Positions 26,029-47,186 of a DNA stretch of 64,000 bases are shown in pieces (the first letter of the stretch is position 1; each line of letters opens with the position of its first letter). Below the pieces are notes generated by a model. It did not search any database, had not been told where the DNA came from, and was given only the letters and a program-made list of their open reading frames with translations. The stretch comes from a plasmid. The stretch lies in NCBI RefSeq assembly GCF_056746865.1, contig NZ_JBWKMP010000003.1. One strand, written 5' to 3'. Made by a program: the position numbers and the translations under genes.

Positions 26029-26244
26029 ATGGCTACTATCCCTACCCCAACTCATTCTGAATTTATCTGGCGTTTCTATTCCTGCCAAAAACACCTTTAT
26101 ATCTGCGTAATGGCTGCTACCGAAGCAGAGGCGCGCTCATACCTTCCCGAAGAACCCTGCATTTTTGCTGCTCGCTTCACTCTTGATGCGATGGAGATCC
26201 TCAATTACTGGAATCTGCCAATGAACTGCGTGGAGGTGCACTGA
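26029..26244 (+). CDS. Icd-like small protein, translationally coupled to ant
   Basis: 71 aa; AAGGAGG Shine-Dalgarno lies inside the predicted antisense target; stop overlaps the ant ATG. Confidence 0.45.
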   Translation: MATIPTPTHSEFIWRFYSCQKHLYICVMAATEAEARSYLPEEPCIFAARFTLDAMEILNYWNLPMNCVEVH

Positions 26245-27185
26245 TGAATCTGTCCATCTCTCAAAAAGCGACAATGACCAGCATTGAGATCGCGGAACTG
26301 GTAGGAAGTCGCCCAGATAGTGTGAAGAGAACTATCGAAACACTGGCTAAAAAGAGTGTGATTCAATTTCCACAATCTGTGGAAATTGAAAATAAACAAT
26401 CAGTTGGCCCTCGTCGATTTTCCAAGGCTTACATCTTTGAAGGCGAACAAGGAAAACGAGACAGCATCATTGTCGTCGCGCAGCTCTCTCCGGAATTTAC
26501 CGCCCGGCTGGTGGACCGCTGGCGCGAACTGGAGAATGCCCGGGTACAGTTAAAATCCAAAGCCGAAATCCTGGCCGAAATGGCGCAAATGCATCTTGAG
26601 CATGAACGCCGGATCAACGCCGTTAATGCCCAGGTAGCCGAAGTATCGGCACAAGTGTCCAGGGTCACCGAAACACTTGAGCAGATCAAGAAAGGCAATA
26701 TTCCAGAAGGCTACATTGGCTATCGCCAGTTGGCGGCAAAATGCGGCCTGACTGAAGCCAAATGCCGCAACCTGGTCAACGCTTACCGGATACCCACTGA
26801 TACGCATGAGTTTTTAACTCCCGACGGTTTGCTTGCGCGACGCTCCATTGTGGCCCTGGCCCCCTTCCGGAAAGCCTTTAAGCAGGTTATGTCGGAGGCA
26901 GAACCACGTAACAAACGCTGGTATCATCCCAGGATGGGGCTATTTCAGGCCATTCACCATCCTGTGCCTGAAAGTCCAAAGGCAAACCTGTCGTTGCATA
27001 CCGCCAGAGAGAAGATTAAAACAGGGTATGCAACCGTATGCCGTCGAGCATCCTGGCCTGAAAGTGTCTGGGTATGGCCCGAAAGAGGCTCACGGAAAAA
27101 CTGGCGCACCATTCGCGACGGCAAGATCTGTGCGATTGATTTACAGCCAGAAGATGTAGCAGCGACCGACTGGATTGTTAGTTAA
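26244..27185 (+). CDS. antirepressor-like protein (Rha-type N-terminal domain)
   Basis: N-terminal TSIEIAELVGSRPDSVKRTIETL resembles the Rha / phage-antirepressor N-domain; occupies the ant position. Confidence 0.55.
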   Translation: MNLSISQKATMTSIEIAELVGSRPDSVKRTIETLAKKSVIQFPQSVEIENKQSVGPRRFSKAYIFEGEQGKRDSIIVVAQLSPEFTARLVDRWRELENARVQLKSKAEILAEMAQMHLEHERRINAVNAQVAEVSAQVSRVTETLEQIKKGNIPEGYIGYRQLAAKCGLTEAKCRNLVNAYRIPTDTHEFLTPDGLLARRSIVALAPFRKAFKQVMSEAEPRNKRWYHPRMGLFQAIHHPVPESPKANLSLHTAREKIKTGYATVCRRASWPESVWVWPERGSRKNWRTIRDGKICAIDLQPEDVAATDWIVS

Positions 27186-27971: not shown

Positions 27972-28592
27972 TTATTGCCCGTATTGTTTACACCATTGCT
28001 CTGCCATTTGTGGGGCTAAAGGCCCAGCCACTGCGCTGTATTCTGCTGTTTTGCTTTGCACGCATGAGGCAGATGGTTTTTTATTGCGCTGTTCCTTGAG
28101 TTGTTTTTCATAGGCAACGATGGCATCGAAACCAGCTACATCTTCCTCCCTCATGAACCCTTTCTTGATCAGAAACTGCTGACCTTCCGGCACCAATGCT
28201 AGAGCATACAACGGCTGCAACAGCTCCCCCAATCCTTCCCGGCTATAAACTTGAAACTGCATCCAGCTTTTACTTAACGCTGTCATAGTGTCTTTGGTGG
28301 AATAGCCAGCCTTGCGTATAGCCTTGTCTAATCGATCTGCTGAATACGCAAACAAACAGAAATCGCCCTTTCCTGTAAACCCCGGTTCAACCGGTTGCAA
28401 CGTGATATTTTCTTTTTCGCAAAAGTCTATAAATTCATCAGGTCTATCGGTTTTATAGTCCCGCAATACCTTCAGTCCAGCCTCATACTTTGCAGGTAAC
28501 GCGCCTGCATAGGCAGCATTAAGAGAAACTCCCCCCAATATAACCGCGAGCACTGCTCCCAAAACCCTTAACTTCACAAAACCATCCTTCAT
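27972..28592 (-). CDS. secreted protein
   Basis: Start at the internal ATG; signal peptide MKDGFVKLRVLGAVLAVILGGVSLNAAYA. Confidence 0.5.
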   Translation of the reverse strand: MKDGFVKLRVLGAVLAVILGGVSLNAAYAGALPAKYEAGLKVLRDYKTDRPDEFIDFCEKENITLQPVEPGFTGKGDFCLFAYSADRLDKAIRKAGYSTKDTMTALSKSWMQFQVYSREGLGELLQPLYALALVPEGQQFLIKKGFMREEDVAGFDAIVAYEKQLKEQRNKKPSASCVQSKTAEYSAVAGPLAPQMAEQWCKQYGQ

Positions 28593-28802
28593 GTAAACAA
28601 ACTGAAGTTTTATGTTACAAAAGCAAACATCTACGCCAAAATGACTTAGGCCAAATTCAGCGCGAATAAAAAAATCAAAAAAATTGTTGACACTATTCTG
28701 GAAATCACAATCTGGACAAAATCCATTGCGCAAACGGCTCCCGTTGAAGGTTCTTTTGACGACTAACTTTCAGCCGATGCGCGGTAGGGAGTCATAACGC
28801 CA

Positions 28803-28832
28803 AAGCAGGCCGCCATGTGCGGCCTTTTTTTG
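28803..28832 (+). terminator. intrinsic terminator with no upstream plus-strand ORF
   Basis: AGGCCGC-catgt-GCGGCCT followed by TTTTTTTGTG. Confidence 0.5.
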
Positions 28833-28857
28833 TGCCTGCTATCGTGGAGTAAAAGCC

Positions 28858-29511
28858 ATGCAAAAGATCGCAATATTCAGTCTTTCTACTAACAAGCCGC
28901 TGATGGCTACGGCAGTCCTGAAAGACGGCGCGCTTGTAATTGACAAAGTAAAGCCGCTCCCTGCATCTGCTATTGAACAAAAACGAAAAATTCCACCAGC
29001 AATTGCCGAGCTGCGTAAAAGTGAATTTAAGGTGCTGGTTGACGAAATCACGCCAACCATTTCAGCCGGTACAGGTGCCAGCCAGGTAACATTAAAAACA
29101 CGGCACGCCGACGGCAGAGCAGCGATCATTGTCGGCATGGAGAGATACCGGGAGCTGAAACTACAAAGGCTGCTATCCCTGCCTGACAAGAACAAAGGGG
29201 CATTTGAGATCCCCGACTCTATCGTCGATACCGAATACAACGGCAACGGTGAAGAGGTTTATCGAGTTAACTGGCAAGATATCCGACCAGAGCACATCCT
29301 GATGATTCTGTGCTGCTATGCAACGGTATACCACAATGTTGCCAGCGCGGATTACCTGAAACAAATGACAGGAGCGGTAGAGAAAGAAAACAAAGCAGGG
29401 ATAATGGCCTCGTTCCTGTCCATTATCAGCGATCAAAAAGCTAAAGCAGGAAATACCCAACCAAAATCGCTGGCCGGGCAAGTAATTGATGAAGATACGG
29501 TGATACTTTAA
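28858..29511 (+). CDS. hypothetical protein
   Basis: 217 aa; ATG with upstream GGAG. Confidence 0.5.
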   Translation: MQKIAIFSLSTNKPLMATAVLKDGALVIDKVKPLPASAIEQKRKIPPAIAELRKSEFKVLVDEITPTISAGTGASQVTLKTRHADGRAAIIVGMERYRELKLQRLLSLPDKNKGAFEIPDSIVDTEYNGNGEEVYRVNWQDIRPEHILMILCCYATVYHNVASADYLKQMTGAVEKENKAGIMASFLSIISDQKAKAGNTQPKSLAGQVIDEDTVIL

Positions 29512-29842
29512 TCAACTCAGTAGCTTTGTTAACTCCCTTAATACCAGGTAGAAGAGTAACAAAAATACTAACGCCAGTATTTGCGTGGTCAACGAGGCGT
29601 TCATAAACAGAACAATTAGCTTTAACAATTCGAGAATAACGTCCATGTCATTCACACTATTTAATTTTTAATCTACAGCCAGCAAACAATGAAGCTGGCC
29701 CCCGCATAAAGATTAATGAAAGTCACTTGTCACCAGTGAGGGGATTTATGAACCACATCCCCCTGAACTGGTGGACTGTCTGTTTCTCGCATTTCACACC
29801 CTGCATACAGTTCCCCCCAGGTTATGACTGTGAGGAACTGTT

Positions 29843-30172
29843 ATGAGTTACAGCAGGCTCGACGATCGATGCATTGAAGACGATGTGCTGCGCGCACTAT
29901 TCCATCAGGAGATGATCAAGCGGGTATCGGAGTACCACTCCGATAATTTCCAGTACACGATAAAAATTGATGAGGTTTATCGCTCAGACCTGGCGGCCTA
30001 TCGCGCCTATGGCAACGCTGATTTGCGCTGGGTATTTCGCGTGCTGGTGGGCCATGAGTCAGAAATGGAAGAAATGCCGGTCGGGACAACGTTAACTCTT
30101 CCTGACGCAGCATGGCTAAGAAACAAGATTCGCGATTACGCTGGCTCGGCACCGGAGATAGAAAATGCCTGA
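29843..30172 (+). CDS. hypothetical protein
   Basis: 109 aa; stop overlaps the next ATG. Confidence 0.45.
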   Translation: MSYSRLDDRCIEDDVLRALFHQEMIKRVSEYHSDNFQYTIKIDEVYRSDLAAYRAYGNADLRWVFRVLVGHESEMEEMPVGTTLTLPDAAWLRNKIRDYAGSAPEIENA

Positions 30173-31395: not shown

Positions 31396-31776
31396 TCATA
31401 CACCAACCAGGCTTTCAAGAGGAATGCCAAACTGGGAATGTAAACGACGAATCATAGGTAACGTTAAATTTCGTGTTCCATTTAGCACTTCGTAAACACG
31501 ATTTGACTTACCAATCGCCGGTTCCAGATCCTTCACGGTCAGCCCTTGCTGTTCCATACGGAATTTAATGGCCTCAATAGGTGATGGTGGCTCAATTGGG
31601 TAATGTTTTTTCTCGTACTCCTCAATGAGAAGACACATGACCTCAAAGAAATCACCTTCCGGGGTGTTCATTTCCGGTTCGTTATCGAACATCGGTTCGA
31701 CCGCACGCAGTGCGGCCTCATAATCTTGTTCTGTACGGATAGGTTTAATGTTCATTAATTCCAAAGGAAAGCCCAC
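31396..31776 (-). CDS. HigA/YgjM-like HTH protein (extra antitoxin-like regulator)
   Basis: MNIKPIRTEQDYEAALRAVE.. N-domain plus C-terminal HTH (GKSNRVYEVLNGTRNLTL). Confidence 0.5.
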   Translation of the reverse strand: MGFPLELMNIKPIRTEQDYEAALRAVEPMFDNEPEMNTPEGDFFEVMCLLIEEYEKKHYPIEPPSPIEAIKFRMEQQGLTVKDLEPAIGKSNRVYEVLNGTRNLTLPMIRRLHSQFGIPLESLVGV

Positions 31777-39514: not shown

Positions 39515-39780
39515 CTGCTCTCCAATGACTAGTCTAAAAACTAGTATTAAGACTATCACTTATTTAAGTGATATTGGTTGTCTGGAGATTCAGGGGGCCA
39601 GTCTAGATGCCCACAGACGCGGAGCGAAAATTGTGATAACAAACAGTGGTGCGCCTAACATTCGCGAACTTTACGTTGGCAATGGCTTCAAGGTGTATCC
39701 TATGCCATCCCGTCGCTCTGTATCCTGTAAAGCATCAACGCGAATGATAGCTAACGACATTATAGCCACACTTAATTAAG

Positions 39781-39808
39781 AAAAGCCCCATATGGGGCTT
39801 TTATAACA
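39781..39808 (+). terminator. intrinsic terminator after the dam 3' fragment
   Basis: AAAAGCCCCA-tat-GGGGCTTTT. Confidence 0.5.
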
Positions 39809-39836
39809 TCAAACAAGCACCGTTACGGTACACTAA

Positions 39837-39903
39837 CAACACCATTCTGGTACTAAAAAGGAATCAAAGTAGCCTCAAAATAACACATGGACCCAAAACG
39901 GTG
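39837..39903. repeat. repeat block flanking the ParA/ParG-like operon (left copy)
   Basis: CAACACCATTCTGGTACTAAAAAG and AGCCTCAAA..CAAAACGGTG recur at 40993-41055. Confidence 0.45.
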
Positions 39904-41055: not shown

Positions 41056-41121
41056 CACCAAATTAGAACCATAACAGTATAAAAAAGGCTGCAAATTGCA
41101 GCCTTTGAAGATGTAGATTTG

Positions 41122-41487
41122 TTAATCAGGGAGTGAGTTTGCCAAATTCTGTGCAGAGCGGCTTTTCGAAACGCCAGGTTTTTTAACATCCGCTGAGGCT
41201 GAGGGGTTTCCTTCAGGGTTTTCCCGAACTTCAGGCGAAATTTCAAGAAATGAAACCAGCATTTTTCTGATCACTTCAGGGCTATTATCACCGGATAAAA
41301 GCGATGCCAACATGGGAGGTAATCTGCTATCAACCTCGCCAAGAGCGATACCTGCAAGCATCGCTGTGCGCGCCATATCATTGCGATCTCTTAATGGATG
41401 GCCCTCAAGTTTTGCATCAGCATATTGCTCACTGGCGTTAAGACCAGGACGAAGATAAAACAATACTTTTCGACGTTCCTGAGACAT
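41122..41487 (-). CDS. parR: ParR-like centromere-binding protein
   Basis: RRKVLFYLRP...RNDMARTAMLAGIAL parallels R1 ParR; immediately downstream of parM. Confidence 0.6.
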   Translation of the reverse strand: MSQERRKVLFYLRPGLNASEQYADAKLEGHPLRDRNDMARTAMLAGIALGEVDSRLPPMLASLLSGDNSPEVIRKMLVSFLEISPEVRENPEGNPSASADVKKPGVSKSRSAQNLANSLPD

Positions 41488-45411: not shown

Positions 45412-45488
45412 ATTGACTAAATAACAAAGTGAGTATTGTCACCTCGTCAAAAGAATCTTCACGCCGCGCCCGAATTTAGGGTTTAACC

Positions 45489-47186
45489 GTGAACAAGAAC
45501 ATTGAGCCAGCTCGTAAGCGCGAGCGCGAGATTATGAATCGGGCGGCAAGCGTCATGGCTATGACCGTCGATCCAACCACTGATGCTGCCGGTAACATGA
45601 TTACCGACAACGAAGTGATGATGGCTAACCTGGAAAAAGCTATCCAGAAAGAGCCAATGTTTGAAGGCGTTGGACCAGAAGCAGCTCGCCAGATCATTGG
45701 TAGCTGGGCCATGTCTATTCATGAATACAAACGCCAGCATGGGCATTATCCGGCAAGCGATGTATTAGCCAACGCCCATGTAGCACTTGAGCGCCTGATG
45801 ATGGAGTCCGCTAAAGAGACGCATGAAGGCGCTGGCAAAGCCATGTTTGAATCAGTAGCCAAGGACATGCGCACCTCCGATGGTGTAATGAAGGTTGCAC
45901 AATATGCCGCACTGATCCTGCCTGCTTCTCTCGGCGCAGCCACCAGCGACGCATGTACGTTTATCCCTTGTGATCGTGATGAAACCAATATTTACGAGCT
46001 GACCAACGTTGCTGGTACAAAATTCGGTACATTCGAGCAGGGCGATGAACTGAACATGCAGTCTGCTGGCGTGTATTCGCAGATGAAACGCCTGTACATC
46101 CTGACCGAAAAAGGCGATGGCAGCAAAACCACCTTCCAGTTTGATATCCAGAACTTCGAAGGCCAGGCCTGCCCGCTGCGCCAGGGCTACAACAAACTGC
46201 TGATTAACCGCAAACCGTCCAAAGTAGATGATGGTGACGGCAACCTGTATTTCAACGACAAAGACGTCAACGGCAACTCTTTCTCTGCTACAGCAAAAGT
46301 TAAATACGATACCGGCGTTATCGATATCACCTTTAATGAAGCACCAGCAGAAGGCACAGAAATCGCTGTTCAGGTTGAAATCAACATTGAACGCAATCCG
46401 AGCCTGATACCAGTCATTAACCAGTCCATGCGCAATTACGCCCTGCGCCCGTCGCAGTACGTGATCGCATCCGAACATACGGTTATGACAGCATCTGACC
46501 TGAGCCGTGAACACGGACTCGAACTGGCAGCATTGCAATTCTCCGCAATGCGCAACTGGATTTCCCACGAAATCGATATGATGCGCCTGCGCACTCTGGT
46601 ATTCCACACAGTTTACGGTCGTGAATTTGATGTGGCACTGCCAGAAGCGCAGAACTACGAATCGTGGGTTGGTTTAATTCGCCATGTAGTGAACGCGCTG
46701 TCACAGGACATGGCTGACCGCACCCTGACTACCGGTATCCGTGGTGGCTTTGCTGGTGGCGATGCTGCTAACTTCCTGCGTTCCTTACCGCCGCAGCACT
46801 TCCAGTTGGCACCGGGCTATGTACAGTCGCCGTACATTCAATACATCGGCACCCTGTTTGGTTCCATTCGTATCTACGAAGTGCCGAAGCCTATCTGCAA
46901 ACAATTCCAGGAACATGGCTACGACTTTGGCCTGGACGACATCTACTTCTATGGTCGTGGCGAAGGCATTGGTAAAGCTGGCCTGGTCGCTGGTGATGCT
47001 GTGCCTGCTATTCCGTATGTCCACGAAACAAATCCAGCCCTGGTAAACCGCACCACTCTTTGGGGTACAGCAATCAACGATGTGCATCCGCGCAACGGTG
47101 AGAACTATTTCACTCGCCTTCGCCTGACACGTTCGAAAGAAGGTGCGATTGACATGTTGAGCGGGCAAATCAACGAAAAAAAGTAG
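45489..47186 (+). CDS. putative major head protein
   Basis: 565 aa; GTG start; first gene of the late structural block. Size and position fit P1 gp23, but no motif evidence. Confidence 0.4.
   Translation: MNKNIEPARKREREIMNRAASVMAMTVDPTTDAAGNMITDNEVMMANLEKAIQKEPMFEGVGPEAARQIIGSWAMSIHEYKRQHGHYPASDVLANAHVALERLMMESAKETHEGAGKAMFESVAKDMRTSDGVMKVAQYAALILPASLGAATSDACTFIPCDRDETNIYELTNVAGTKFGTFEQGDELNMQSAGVYSQMKRLYILTEKGDGSKTTFQFDIQNFEGQACPLRQGYNKLLINRKPSKVDDGDGNLYFNDKDVNGNSFSATAKVKYDTGVIDITFNEAPAEGTEIAVQVEINIERNPSLIPVINQSMRNYALRPSQYVIASEHTVMTASDLSREHGLELAALQFSAMRNWISHEIDMMRLRTLVFHTVYGREFDVALPEAQNYESWVGLIRHVVNALSQDMADRTLTTGIRGGFAGGDAANFLRSLPPQHFQLAPGYVQSPYIQYIGTLFGSIRIYEVPKPICKQFQEHGYDFGLDDIYFYGRGEGIGKAGLVAGDAVPAIPYVHETNPALVNRTTLWGTAINDVHPRNGENYFTRLRLTRSKEGAIDMLSGQINEKK

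Follow-up and report, generated by a model that had tools for sequence, protein, structure and literature searches.

A candidate structured RNA in the mat leader of P1/D6-like phage-plasmids, predicted to pair with the major capsid mRNA

The mat locus

The DNA analysed here (64,000 nt, called the window throughout) is that of a P1/D6-like phage-plasmid. Phage P1 is among the most studied temperate phages. Escherichia, Salmonella, Shigella and Enterobacter commonly carry P1/D6-like phage-plasmids, and resistance genes such as mcr-1 have been reported on related elements. The element of interest lies, as the initial annotation had proposed, between divergent genes, which are a simB-like gene on the minus strand and a homolog of the phage P1 gene mat on the plus strand (Table 1). 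The 600 bases around it are 99.7% identical to ~90-kb Escherichia coli plasmids and ~81% identical to phage D6. The same annotation saw no plus-strand coding, and we agree: the sole mechanical ORF is one of 37 codons starting with TTG (28684-28797), the length of this stretch differs between lineages by non-multiples of three, and no believable gene ends at the terminator.

The mat gene of phage P1 is its 'maturation control' gene. Fold prediction suggests that Mat may be a terminase-type or RuvC-like nuclease; such a protein would plausibly be harmful if produced early. A role for Mat as a transcription regulator was considered and rejected, since Pfam and PDB sequence searches came back empty and the predicted fold points to a nuclease.

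Two database gene starts in this region deserve comment. The phage P1 reference (NC_005856, 2716-2829; 1384-1497 of our locus L015) starts mat 37 codons upstream, within the leader and across the terminator. Homology among mat genes starts at ATG 1495 of L015, homologs are 217-220 aa long, the PHROG profile begins at the same ATG, and P1-like contigs carry a 1-nt indel (GGGGG/GGGG) inside the supposed extension. Together these facts make the annotated start doubtful, and by such sequence comparison it is probably wrong. On the other side, RefSeq relatives start the divergent simB-like gene at TTG 28733 (28593-28733, minus strand), so that it overlaps the promoter and first bases of the RNA described below; its real start looks like the ATG of Table 1, which is followed by a signal peptide (MKDGFVKLRVLGAVLAVILGG...).

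Table 1. Features of the mat leader and of the capsid leader in the window
Feature	Position	Strand	Details
simB-like gene	ATG 28592 (likely start)	minus	
TTGACA, -35-like hexamer	28687-28692	plus	homologous hexamer in phage P1 annotated as Pmat -35
Imperfect inverted repeat ATTCTGGAAAT, then -10-like CACAAT	28695-28711	plus	CACAAT 28706-28711
Predicted ~115-nt small RNA (mat leader)	28717-28831	plus	three-way junction and intrinsic terminator
Outer stem P1, 5' strand	28728-28742	plus	GCG 28728-28730, internal loop, GGCUCCC 28736-28742
Hairpin P2	28745-28772	plus	stem UGAAGGUU 28745-28752 with AACUUUCA 28765-28772
P2 loop, 12 nt	28753-28764	plus	CUUUUGACGACU
Small hairpin P3	28773-28785	plus	GCCG 28773-28776 with CGGU 28782-28785; holds conserved GCGCGG (28779-28784)
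Outer stem P1, 3' strand	28787-28800	plus	GGGAGUC 28787-28793, internal loop, CGC 28798-28800
Intrinsic terminator	28807-28831	plus	7-bp stem AGGCCGC/GCGGCCT (28807-28813 with 28819-28825; six G-C pairs), 5-nt loop CATGT, 7-U run (seven T, 28825-28831)
mat homolog with Shine-Dalgarno	28846-29511	plus	GGAG 28846-28849, ATG 28858, 217 aa
Capsid promoter-like region	45413-45439	plus	TTGACT 45413-45418, box AAAGTGAGT, -10-like TATTGT 45434-45439
Target site UCGUCAAAAGAAUCUUCA	45444-45461	plus	5' end of capsid mRNA
Predicted inhibitory capsid-leader structure	45458-45493	plus	predicted outer stem UUCACG (45458-45463) with CGUGAA (45488-45493), covering the GUG start codon (45489-45491); predicted inner hairpin GCCC (45468-45471) with GGGU (45479-45482), containing Shine-Dalgarno AGGG
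Major capsid protein gene, homolog of phage P1 gene 23 (proposed target)	45489-47186	plus	

Transcription signals

Three features were taken to define an intrinsic (Rho-independent) terminator: a G+C-rich stem of at least 5 bp, a loop of 3-8 nt, and a U-rich tract that follows the stem immediately. The GC-rich hairpin and 7-T run that had been pointed out at first are present and fit this definition. The U tail of 7 nt also has the length of at least six U that, together with Hfq binding, defines Hfq-dependent small RNAs. In a 2.5-kb scan four terminator-like matches were found against 2.5 expected, so that a lone match is not above chance; the significance of this terminator comes instead from its conservation in ~87 related loci. 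It ends 26 nt before the mat start codon, and therefore any transcript made here is also the mat leader. There is no space in this gap for a further promoter, and mat can be transcribed solely through the terminator.

The TTGACA hexamer had been placed near 28688 and is there, one base to the left; as part of a conventional promoter it is weak. Counting against our main reading, the best -10-like hexamer, CACAAT, is only 13 nt away, and a consensus promoter scan called no promoter at TTGACA/CACAAT. The core TTGAC is retained in most lineages, with 13 to 19 nt between it and the -10-like element. At the position homologous to this one, the phage P1 reference record has Pmat and LPmat as annotated promoters and, upstream of them, a C1 operator; the inverted repeat and CACAAT of the window are placed like the -22 box and -10 of the late promoter LPmat. 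From this spacing, transcription is predicted to start at ~28717-28719.

Other promoter-like sequences were noted in the window. Upstream of TTGACA there is a conserved block, AATGACTTAGGCCAAAT (28640-28656, plus strand), in which AAATGACTT, 4 nt and CAAATT resemble a phage P1 late promoter (-22 box AAGTGACTT, then a -10); judged by its sequence, the block could be a second promoter of the leader or the promoter of the divergent gene. The sole exact palindromic phage P1 late-promoter box (AAGTCACTT/AAGTGACTT) in the window is at 29720-29728, upstream of the gene 26 homolog (29843-30172), and is probably the late promoter of that operon. Phage P1 Lpa boxes in general are not enriched in the window (13 matches, 14.3 expected), and a search of the rest of the window for the promoter motif of the RNA gave no second copy.

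Conservation across lineages

In 15 relatives the block from TTGACA to the terminator is near-invariant, whereas both its upstream flank and the coding sequence of mat diverge. In a protein-guided scan, viral contigs contributed 80 more mat loci, which were added to the plasmid and phage records. Nine sequence lineages are represented among the resulting ~87 related loci: A (the window and D6), B to G, H (phage P1) and I (Cronobacter phage JK004). In ~87/87 loci a GCCGC...GCGGC hairpin and U run are found 20-35 nt before mat, and the stem shows compensatory changes, G-C to A-U as well as A-U/G-U. Phage P1 and JK004 keep the same layout with almost wholly different sequence, in the order -35-like hexamer, Lpa box, -10, long structured region, terminator, ribosome-binding site and mat.

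One locus is decayed. In the Salmonella plasmid pSa1423-90k (~560-700 of locus L008) the copy of the RNA has a 1-nt deletion in the outer stem and an insertion in the partner strand, its terminator stem is damaged and its T run short, and mat is disrupted; with RNA and gene both affected, this looks like a defective prophage.

In the 64-kb window, the covariance model of lineages A-F has one full match (28717-28834, 92.9 bits, E 3e-21). We had considered a leader repeated before several late operons and rejected it, given this single copy; the other matches in the window involve only the terminator half of the model. These are strong terminator hairpins with T runs at 41077-41141 and 39774-39867, both on the minus strand. 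Viral contigs were also scanned for two conserved motifs; among the 80 stretches listed, most of them chance matches, the model matches P1-like contigs only, and these were already known.

No family reached its gathering threshold when 28400-29000 was scanned with Rfam 15. The best sub-threshold matches, asX2 (18.2 bits, threshold 70) and isrK (14.7 bits, threshold 50), align the terminator only. Literature searches found no published description of the RNA; the P1 genome paper (Lobocka et al. 2004) lay outside their coverage.

Fold of the RNA

The initial annotation had suggested a small RNA of ~100 nt from the TTGACA region. Conservation, a shared fold and co-variation with the capsid leader (below) favour such an RNA, with a length of ~115 nt and predicted ends near 28717 and 28831. 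Of the two signals that would delimit a discrete transcript, the terminator is present in the sequence and the promoter is predicted from conservation and from the Pmat/LPmat annotation of phage P1. All nine lineages are able to adopt one fold, a three-way junction formed by an outer stem (P1 in Table 1) and the hairpins P2 and P3, followed by the terminator. The consensus of the P2 loop is YUUUUGACRAYU.

Single-sequence folding gives the junction as the minimum-energy structure, or within 0-0.8 kcal of it, in the window, loci L013, L046-48 and L055, phage P1 and JK004. The gap to the minimum is 1.8 kcal in lineage G and 2.9 kcal in the D6 type. Two results count against the junction: in lineage E it was not recovered by folding and is ~4 kcal above the minimum, and in the window and D6 lineages an alternative pairing of the 5' CAUUGCGC with GCGCGGUA is equally or more stable. 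The alternative has one apparent compensatory change; it is confined to the 5' part of the RNA, so that the terminator is not disturbed.

Pairs were counted in a hand-made structural alignment of 19 sequences, which was fitted to the structure and so carries a fitting bias; each sequence has 26-32 pairs, nearly all canonical. Covariation statistics were taken from the 14 sequences of lineages A-F, and pair counts for phage P1, JK004 and lineage G came from a separate script. In the A-F part of this fitted alignment 95.3% of cells are paired, against 78.8% in shuffles (0/500 as high), two-sided changes occur at 17 pairs (1/500 shuffles) and the covariation score is 0.39 against 0.15. Controls with slid partners gave 34-52% pairing. 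An unguided MAFFT/CM alignment had 79% pairing, with no excess over shuffles and no covariation signal; without guidance, both MAFFT and the model-based method put the 5' strand of the outer stem out of register from one lineage to another. Because the alignment was fitted to the structure and the unguided one lacks the signal, the support is for the topology and not for all pairs: the topology of the fold is well supported, though not each pair in it.

A riboswitch or attenuator was considered and rejected. No antiterminator competing with the terminator was found, and the terminator hairpin is in the minimum-energy fold of each lineage.

Complementarity to the capsid leader

When the window was searched for complements of the P2 loop, 45444-45455 matched exactly over 12 nt; the GTG with which the major capsid protein gene begins is 34 nt further downstream. 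Extended into the P2 arm, the pairing reaches 18 bp and -26.1 kcal/mol, between loci 16.7 kb apart. This site is the best partner in the whole window on both strands, the RNA's own antisense excepted (background -8.9 kcal/mol, sd 2.4); the next-best partners are antisense inside ORFs.

For each of the nine lineages, the region upstream of the capsid gene was then taken from the genome or contig that had supplied the RNA. The P2 5' arm and loop pair with the cognate capsid leader over 14-18 bp in 9/9 lineages, and the duplex has a fixed position, -47 to -27 from the start codon. Cognate pairs have a mean energy of -22.2 kcal/mol, with values from -18.1 to -28.9, whereas pairs made between lineages average -13.7; when the pairings of the nine lineages were shuffled, none of 20,000 permutations was as good. 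The 15 duplexes contain 221 Watson-Crick pairs, 11 G.U pairs and no A.C mismatches. Examples of the co-variation are given in Table 2. Running RNAduplex on whole RNAs against whole leaders was uninformative, with long spurious duplexes throughout.

Table 2. Pairing segments of the small RNA and the cognate capsid leader
Lineage	Small RNA	Capsid leader
A	GGUUCUUUUGAC	GUCAAAAGAAYC
F	GGUUUUUUGGCG	CGCCAAAAAACC
G	GGGGUUUUGCUUUUCGAC	GUCGAGAAGCAAACCCC
Phage P1	GGAUCCCUUUUC	GAAAAGGGAUUC
JK004	GGGACUCUUUUCA	UGAAAAGAGUUCC

The segment has the properties that define the seed of a trans-acting sRNA, being conserved and accessible and having pairing that co-varies, and we propose the P2 5' arm and loop as the seed for the capsid mRNA. 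It counts against this that the 5' arm can be used only by opening a stable hairpin. A second contact is possible, in which GCGCGG of P3 would pair with CCGCGC (45464-45469), directly 3' of the first site. It is invariant in lineages A-F, weak elsewhere and barely co-varies, which counts against it; the equivalent in phage P1 and JK004 is GGCAC with GUGCC.

Both loci are on the plus strand in the window, making an inverted DNA repeat, and on opposite strands in phage P1, making a direct repeat. Since the orientation of the repeat differs, the conserved feature is sense-sense RNA complementarity rather than a DNA repeat of fixed orientation, and this makes it less likely that the two loci share a recombination site or a DNA site bound by a protein.

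In phage P1 the target site begins 7 nt past the annotated -10 of LP23, and so lies at the very start of the late capsid transcript. The window has the same geometry, with a -10-like TATTGT ahead of the site, and by analogy with LP23 its capsid transcript is predicted to start at ~45446. In phage P1 and JK004, ACAAGTGACTT is found in the promoter of the RNA as well as in that of the capsid gene, and in lineages D and E the same is true of CAAAGTACAAACCGCATAA; in the lineage of the window the two promoters are unlike each other. The motifs that the two promoters share in phage P1, JK004 and lineages D and E suggest that RNA and target are probably co-produced there late in infection.

Predicted structure of the capsid leader

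RNAalifold on 13 capsid leaders from lineages A-F predicted a 6-bp outer stem (YUCRCR/YGUGAR) and an inner hairpin (GCCC/GGGY) that holds the Shine-Dalgarno AGGG, with two compensatory pairs in the outer stem, changed on both sides. As a predicted translational block on the major capsid gene, this structure is notable on its own. In lineages A-F it would be a conserved stem occluding the start codon, the kind of leader on which anti-antisense activating sRNAs act. The target site takes in 4/6 bases of the 5' strand of the outer stem; when pairing was forbidden at the target bases in predicted folds of lineages A-F, the outer stem was lost at a cost of 3-5 kcal. In lineage G the site covers the strand masking the Shine-Dalgarno, which is consistent with activation. 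The capsid leaders of phage P1 and JK004 showed no start-codon stem in their predicted folds, and in these phages regulation may run in a different direction.

Proposed mode of action

In lineages A-F the target strand is predicted to mask the start codon, as in known anti-antisense activators, and from this we infer that the RNA switches on capsid translation. Our best explanation as a whole is a structured small RNA, also the leader of mat, that pairs with the capsid mRNA and activates its translation, mat being expressed by read-through; we give it a probability of roughly two in three. By its sequence features the RNA would be classed as a phage-encoded, trans-acting base-pairing RNA outside every curated family, and is probably a regulator of capsid production that has not been described before.

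The proposed steps are as follows. The element would be transcribed from the promoter just downstream of TTGACA, which in phage P1 and JK004 has the late, Lpa-box form. Most transcripts would stop at the strong intrinsic terminator, with a read-through fraction supplying mat. The released RNA would fold into the three-way junction, and the 12-nt P2 loop (CUUUUGAC...) would nucleate pairing with the first ~18 nt of the late capsid mRNA, from where the duplex would extend along the 5' arm of P2. In the lineage of the window, the target's 3' portion (UUCA of UUCACG) belongs to the strand otherwise predicted to pair with the capsid GUG at the base of the structure that holds the Shine-Dalgarno. 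Binding of the small RNA would open the start codon and turn capsid translation on.

The likeliest competitor, in our view an unlikely one, keeps the pairing and reverses its sign: the RNA would repress the capsid mRNA or mark it for processing, so that capsid synthesis is delayed or limited. RNase III might, for instance, cleave the 14-18 bp duplex formed at the mRNA 5' end, or the duplex might change decay that depends on that end. The pairing evidence fits this equally, the leader hairpin of phage P1 leaves the ribosome-binding site unoccluded, and in the predicted phage P1 fold with the site blocked CCUUG pairs with the Shine-Dalgarno AAGG. What speaks for activation instead is the layout in lineages A-F and G, where the strand that the RNA would bind is also the one that masks the start codon or Shine-Dalgarno, as in activating sRNAs, and the position of the site, which at 27-47 nt upstream of the start codon is beyond the ribosome footprint.

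Activation might also be part of something larger, a late-stage checkpoint that couples two essential functions, head-protein synthesis and DNA maturation, via a single RNA-RNA contact. The small RNA freed by transcription of the mat leader would be needed to unlock capsid mRNA translation, and abundant capsid leader would remodel the nascent mat leader, raising read-through into the nuclease-like Mat. This is speculative, and we rate it slightly below repression.

We think it improbable that the element acts in cis alone, as a leader or insulator whose terminator holds the nuclease-like Mat off until read-through, the RNA being a by-product like lambda 6S. Such a role agrees with the absence of space for another promoter in the 26 nt before the mat ATG, with a predicted nuclease that is plausibly harmful early, and with the location of the element only upstream of mat in the window and in the 80 listed viral-contig stretches. 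Read-through could then come from a phage antiterminator or from capsid leader pairing with the nascent mat leader. However, a search for pairings in competition with the terminator found none, and every minimum-energy fold contains the hairpin; P2 is ~35 nt from the terminator with the closing stem between them; and the lineage-specific complementarity of 14-18 bp to a gene 16.7 kb away is left unexplained.

It is very improbable that both loci share a double-stranded DNA site for one protein (e.g. a late regulator) with the RNA complementarity incidental: both copies closely follow promoters, which resemble each other in several lineages, and a DNA site functions in either orientation, but all 11 non-Watson-Crick positions are G.U in the sense-sense orientation and none A.C, the mat-leader copy is embedded in a hairpin with a co-varying stem, and the sequence has been almost wholly replaced (GGUUCUUUUGAC, GGAUCCCUUUUC, GGGGUUUUGCUUUUCGAC) with complementarity kept, which would be unusual unless the protein changed too.

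Comparison with known systems

To our knowledge C4 is the only regulatory RNA known for the P1/D6-like family. If activation by the mat-leader RNA is true, the P1 family has a second, structurally distinct regulatory RNA, conserved from phage P1 to distant relatives and with a co-varying capsid target, and late gene control gains a post-transcriptional layer. It would account for an essential gene placed behind a strong terminator, and the mat start of the phage P1 reference would be corrected. It would also be a compact case of a phage RNA gating virion production, with natural compensatory variants at hand.

The window has its own C4 antisense RNA (RF01695, 25887-25974, plus strand, 77 bits in Rfam) and an isrK-like RNA (RF01394, 25764-25842, plus strand, 61 bits). 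These are directly upstream of icd (26029-26244) and a Rha-type antirepressor (26244-27185), an arrangement that is the P1-type immunity I region. A HigA-like antitoxin ORF was also noted (31396-31776, minus strand), at the place where phage D6 has a HigA/RelE-type addiction module.

The C4 RNA of P1/P7 comes from the same phage family and is likewise a structured RNA with loops complementary to short sites in mRNA leaders; a two-site contact is possible for the mat-leader RNA as well. The two have no sequence or model similarity, and the Rfam scan of 28400-29000 gave no C4 match. C4 is processed from the operon it represses (icd-ant), whereas the mat-leader RNA has its own terminator and a target 16.7 kb off, and is predicted to activate. 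The Hfq-binding prophage sRNA isrK (RF01394) ends in a similar GC-rich terminator, but only this half aligns, at 14.7 bits against a gathering score of 50.

Trans-acting sRNAs derived from leaders or attenuators include SreA/SreB of Listeria and rnTrpL of Sinorhizobium, and lambda has the PR'-tR' 6S transcript. As in these, the short transcript predicted here ends at a terminator between promoter and gene, and the gene needs read-through. Unlike SreA/SreB and rnTrpL, the mat-leader RNA has no ligand-sensing or leader-peptide-dependent alternative structure that we could find. We know of no trans target of lambda 6S and of no Q-type antiterminator in phage P1.

The nearest functional parallels are the anti-antisense activating sRNAs: DsrA, RprA and ArcZ on rpoS, RNAIII on hla and GlmZ on glmS. 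There too an upstream leader strand masks the ribosome-binding site or start codon, the sRNA pairs with that strand far from the start codon, and the sRNA ends in an intrinsic terminator with a U tail. The mat-leader RNA differs from them in that a phage encodes it and its proposed target is the capsid gene of that same phage, with activation predicted from the leader fold. It would seed from the 12-nt loop of a three-way junction onto the extreme 5' end of the mRNA, and it would double as the leader of an essential gene.
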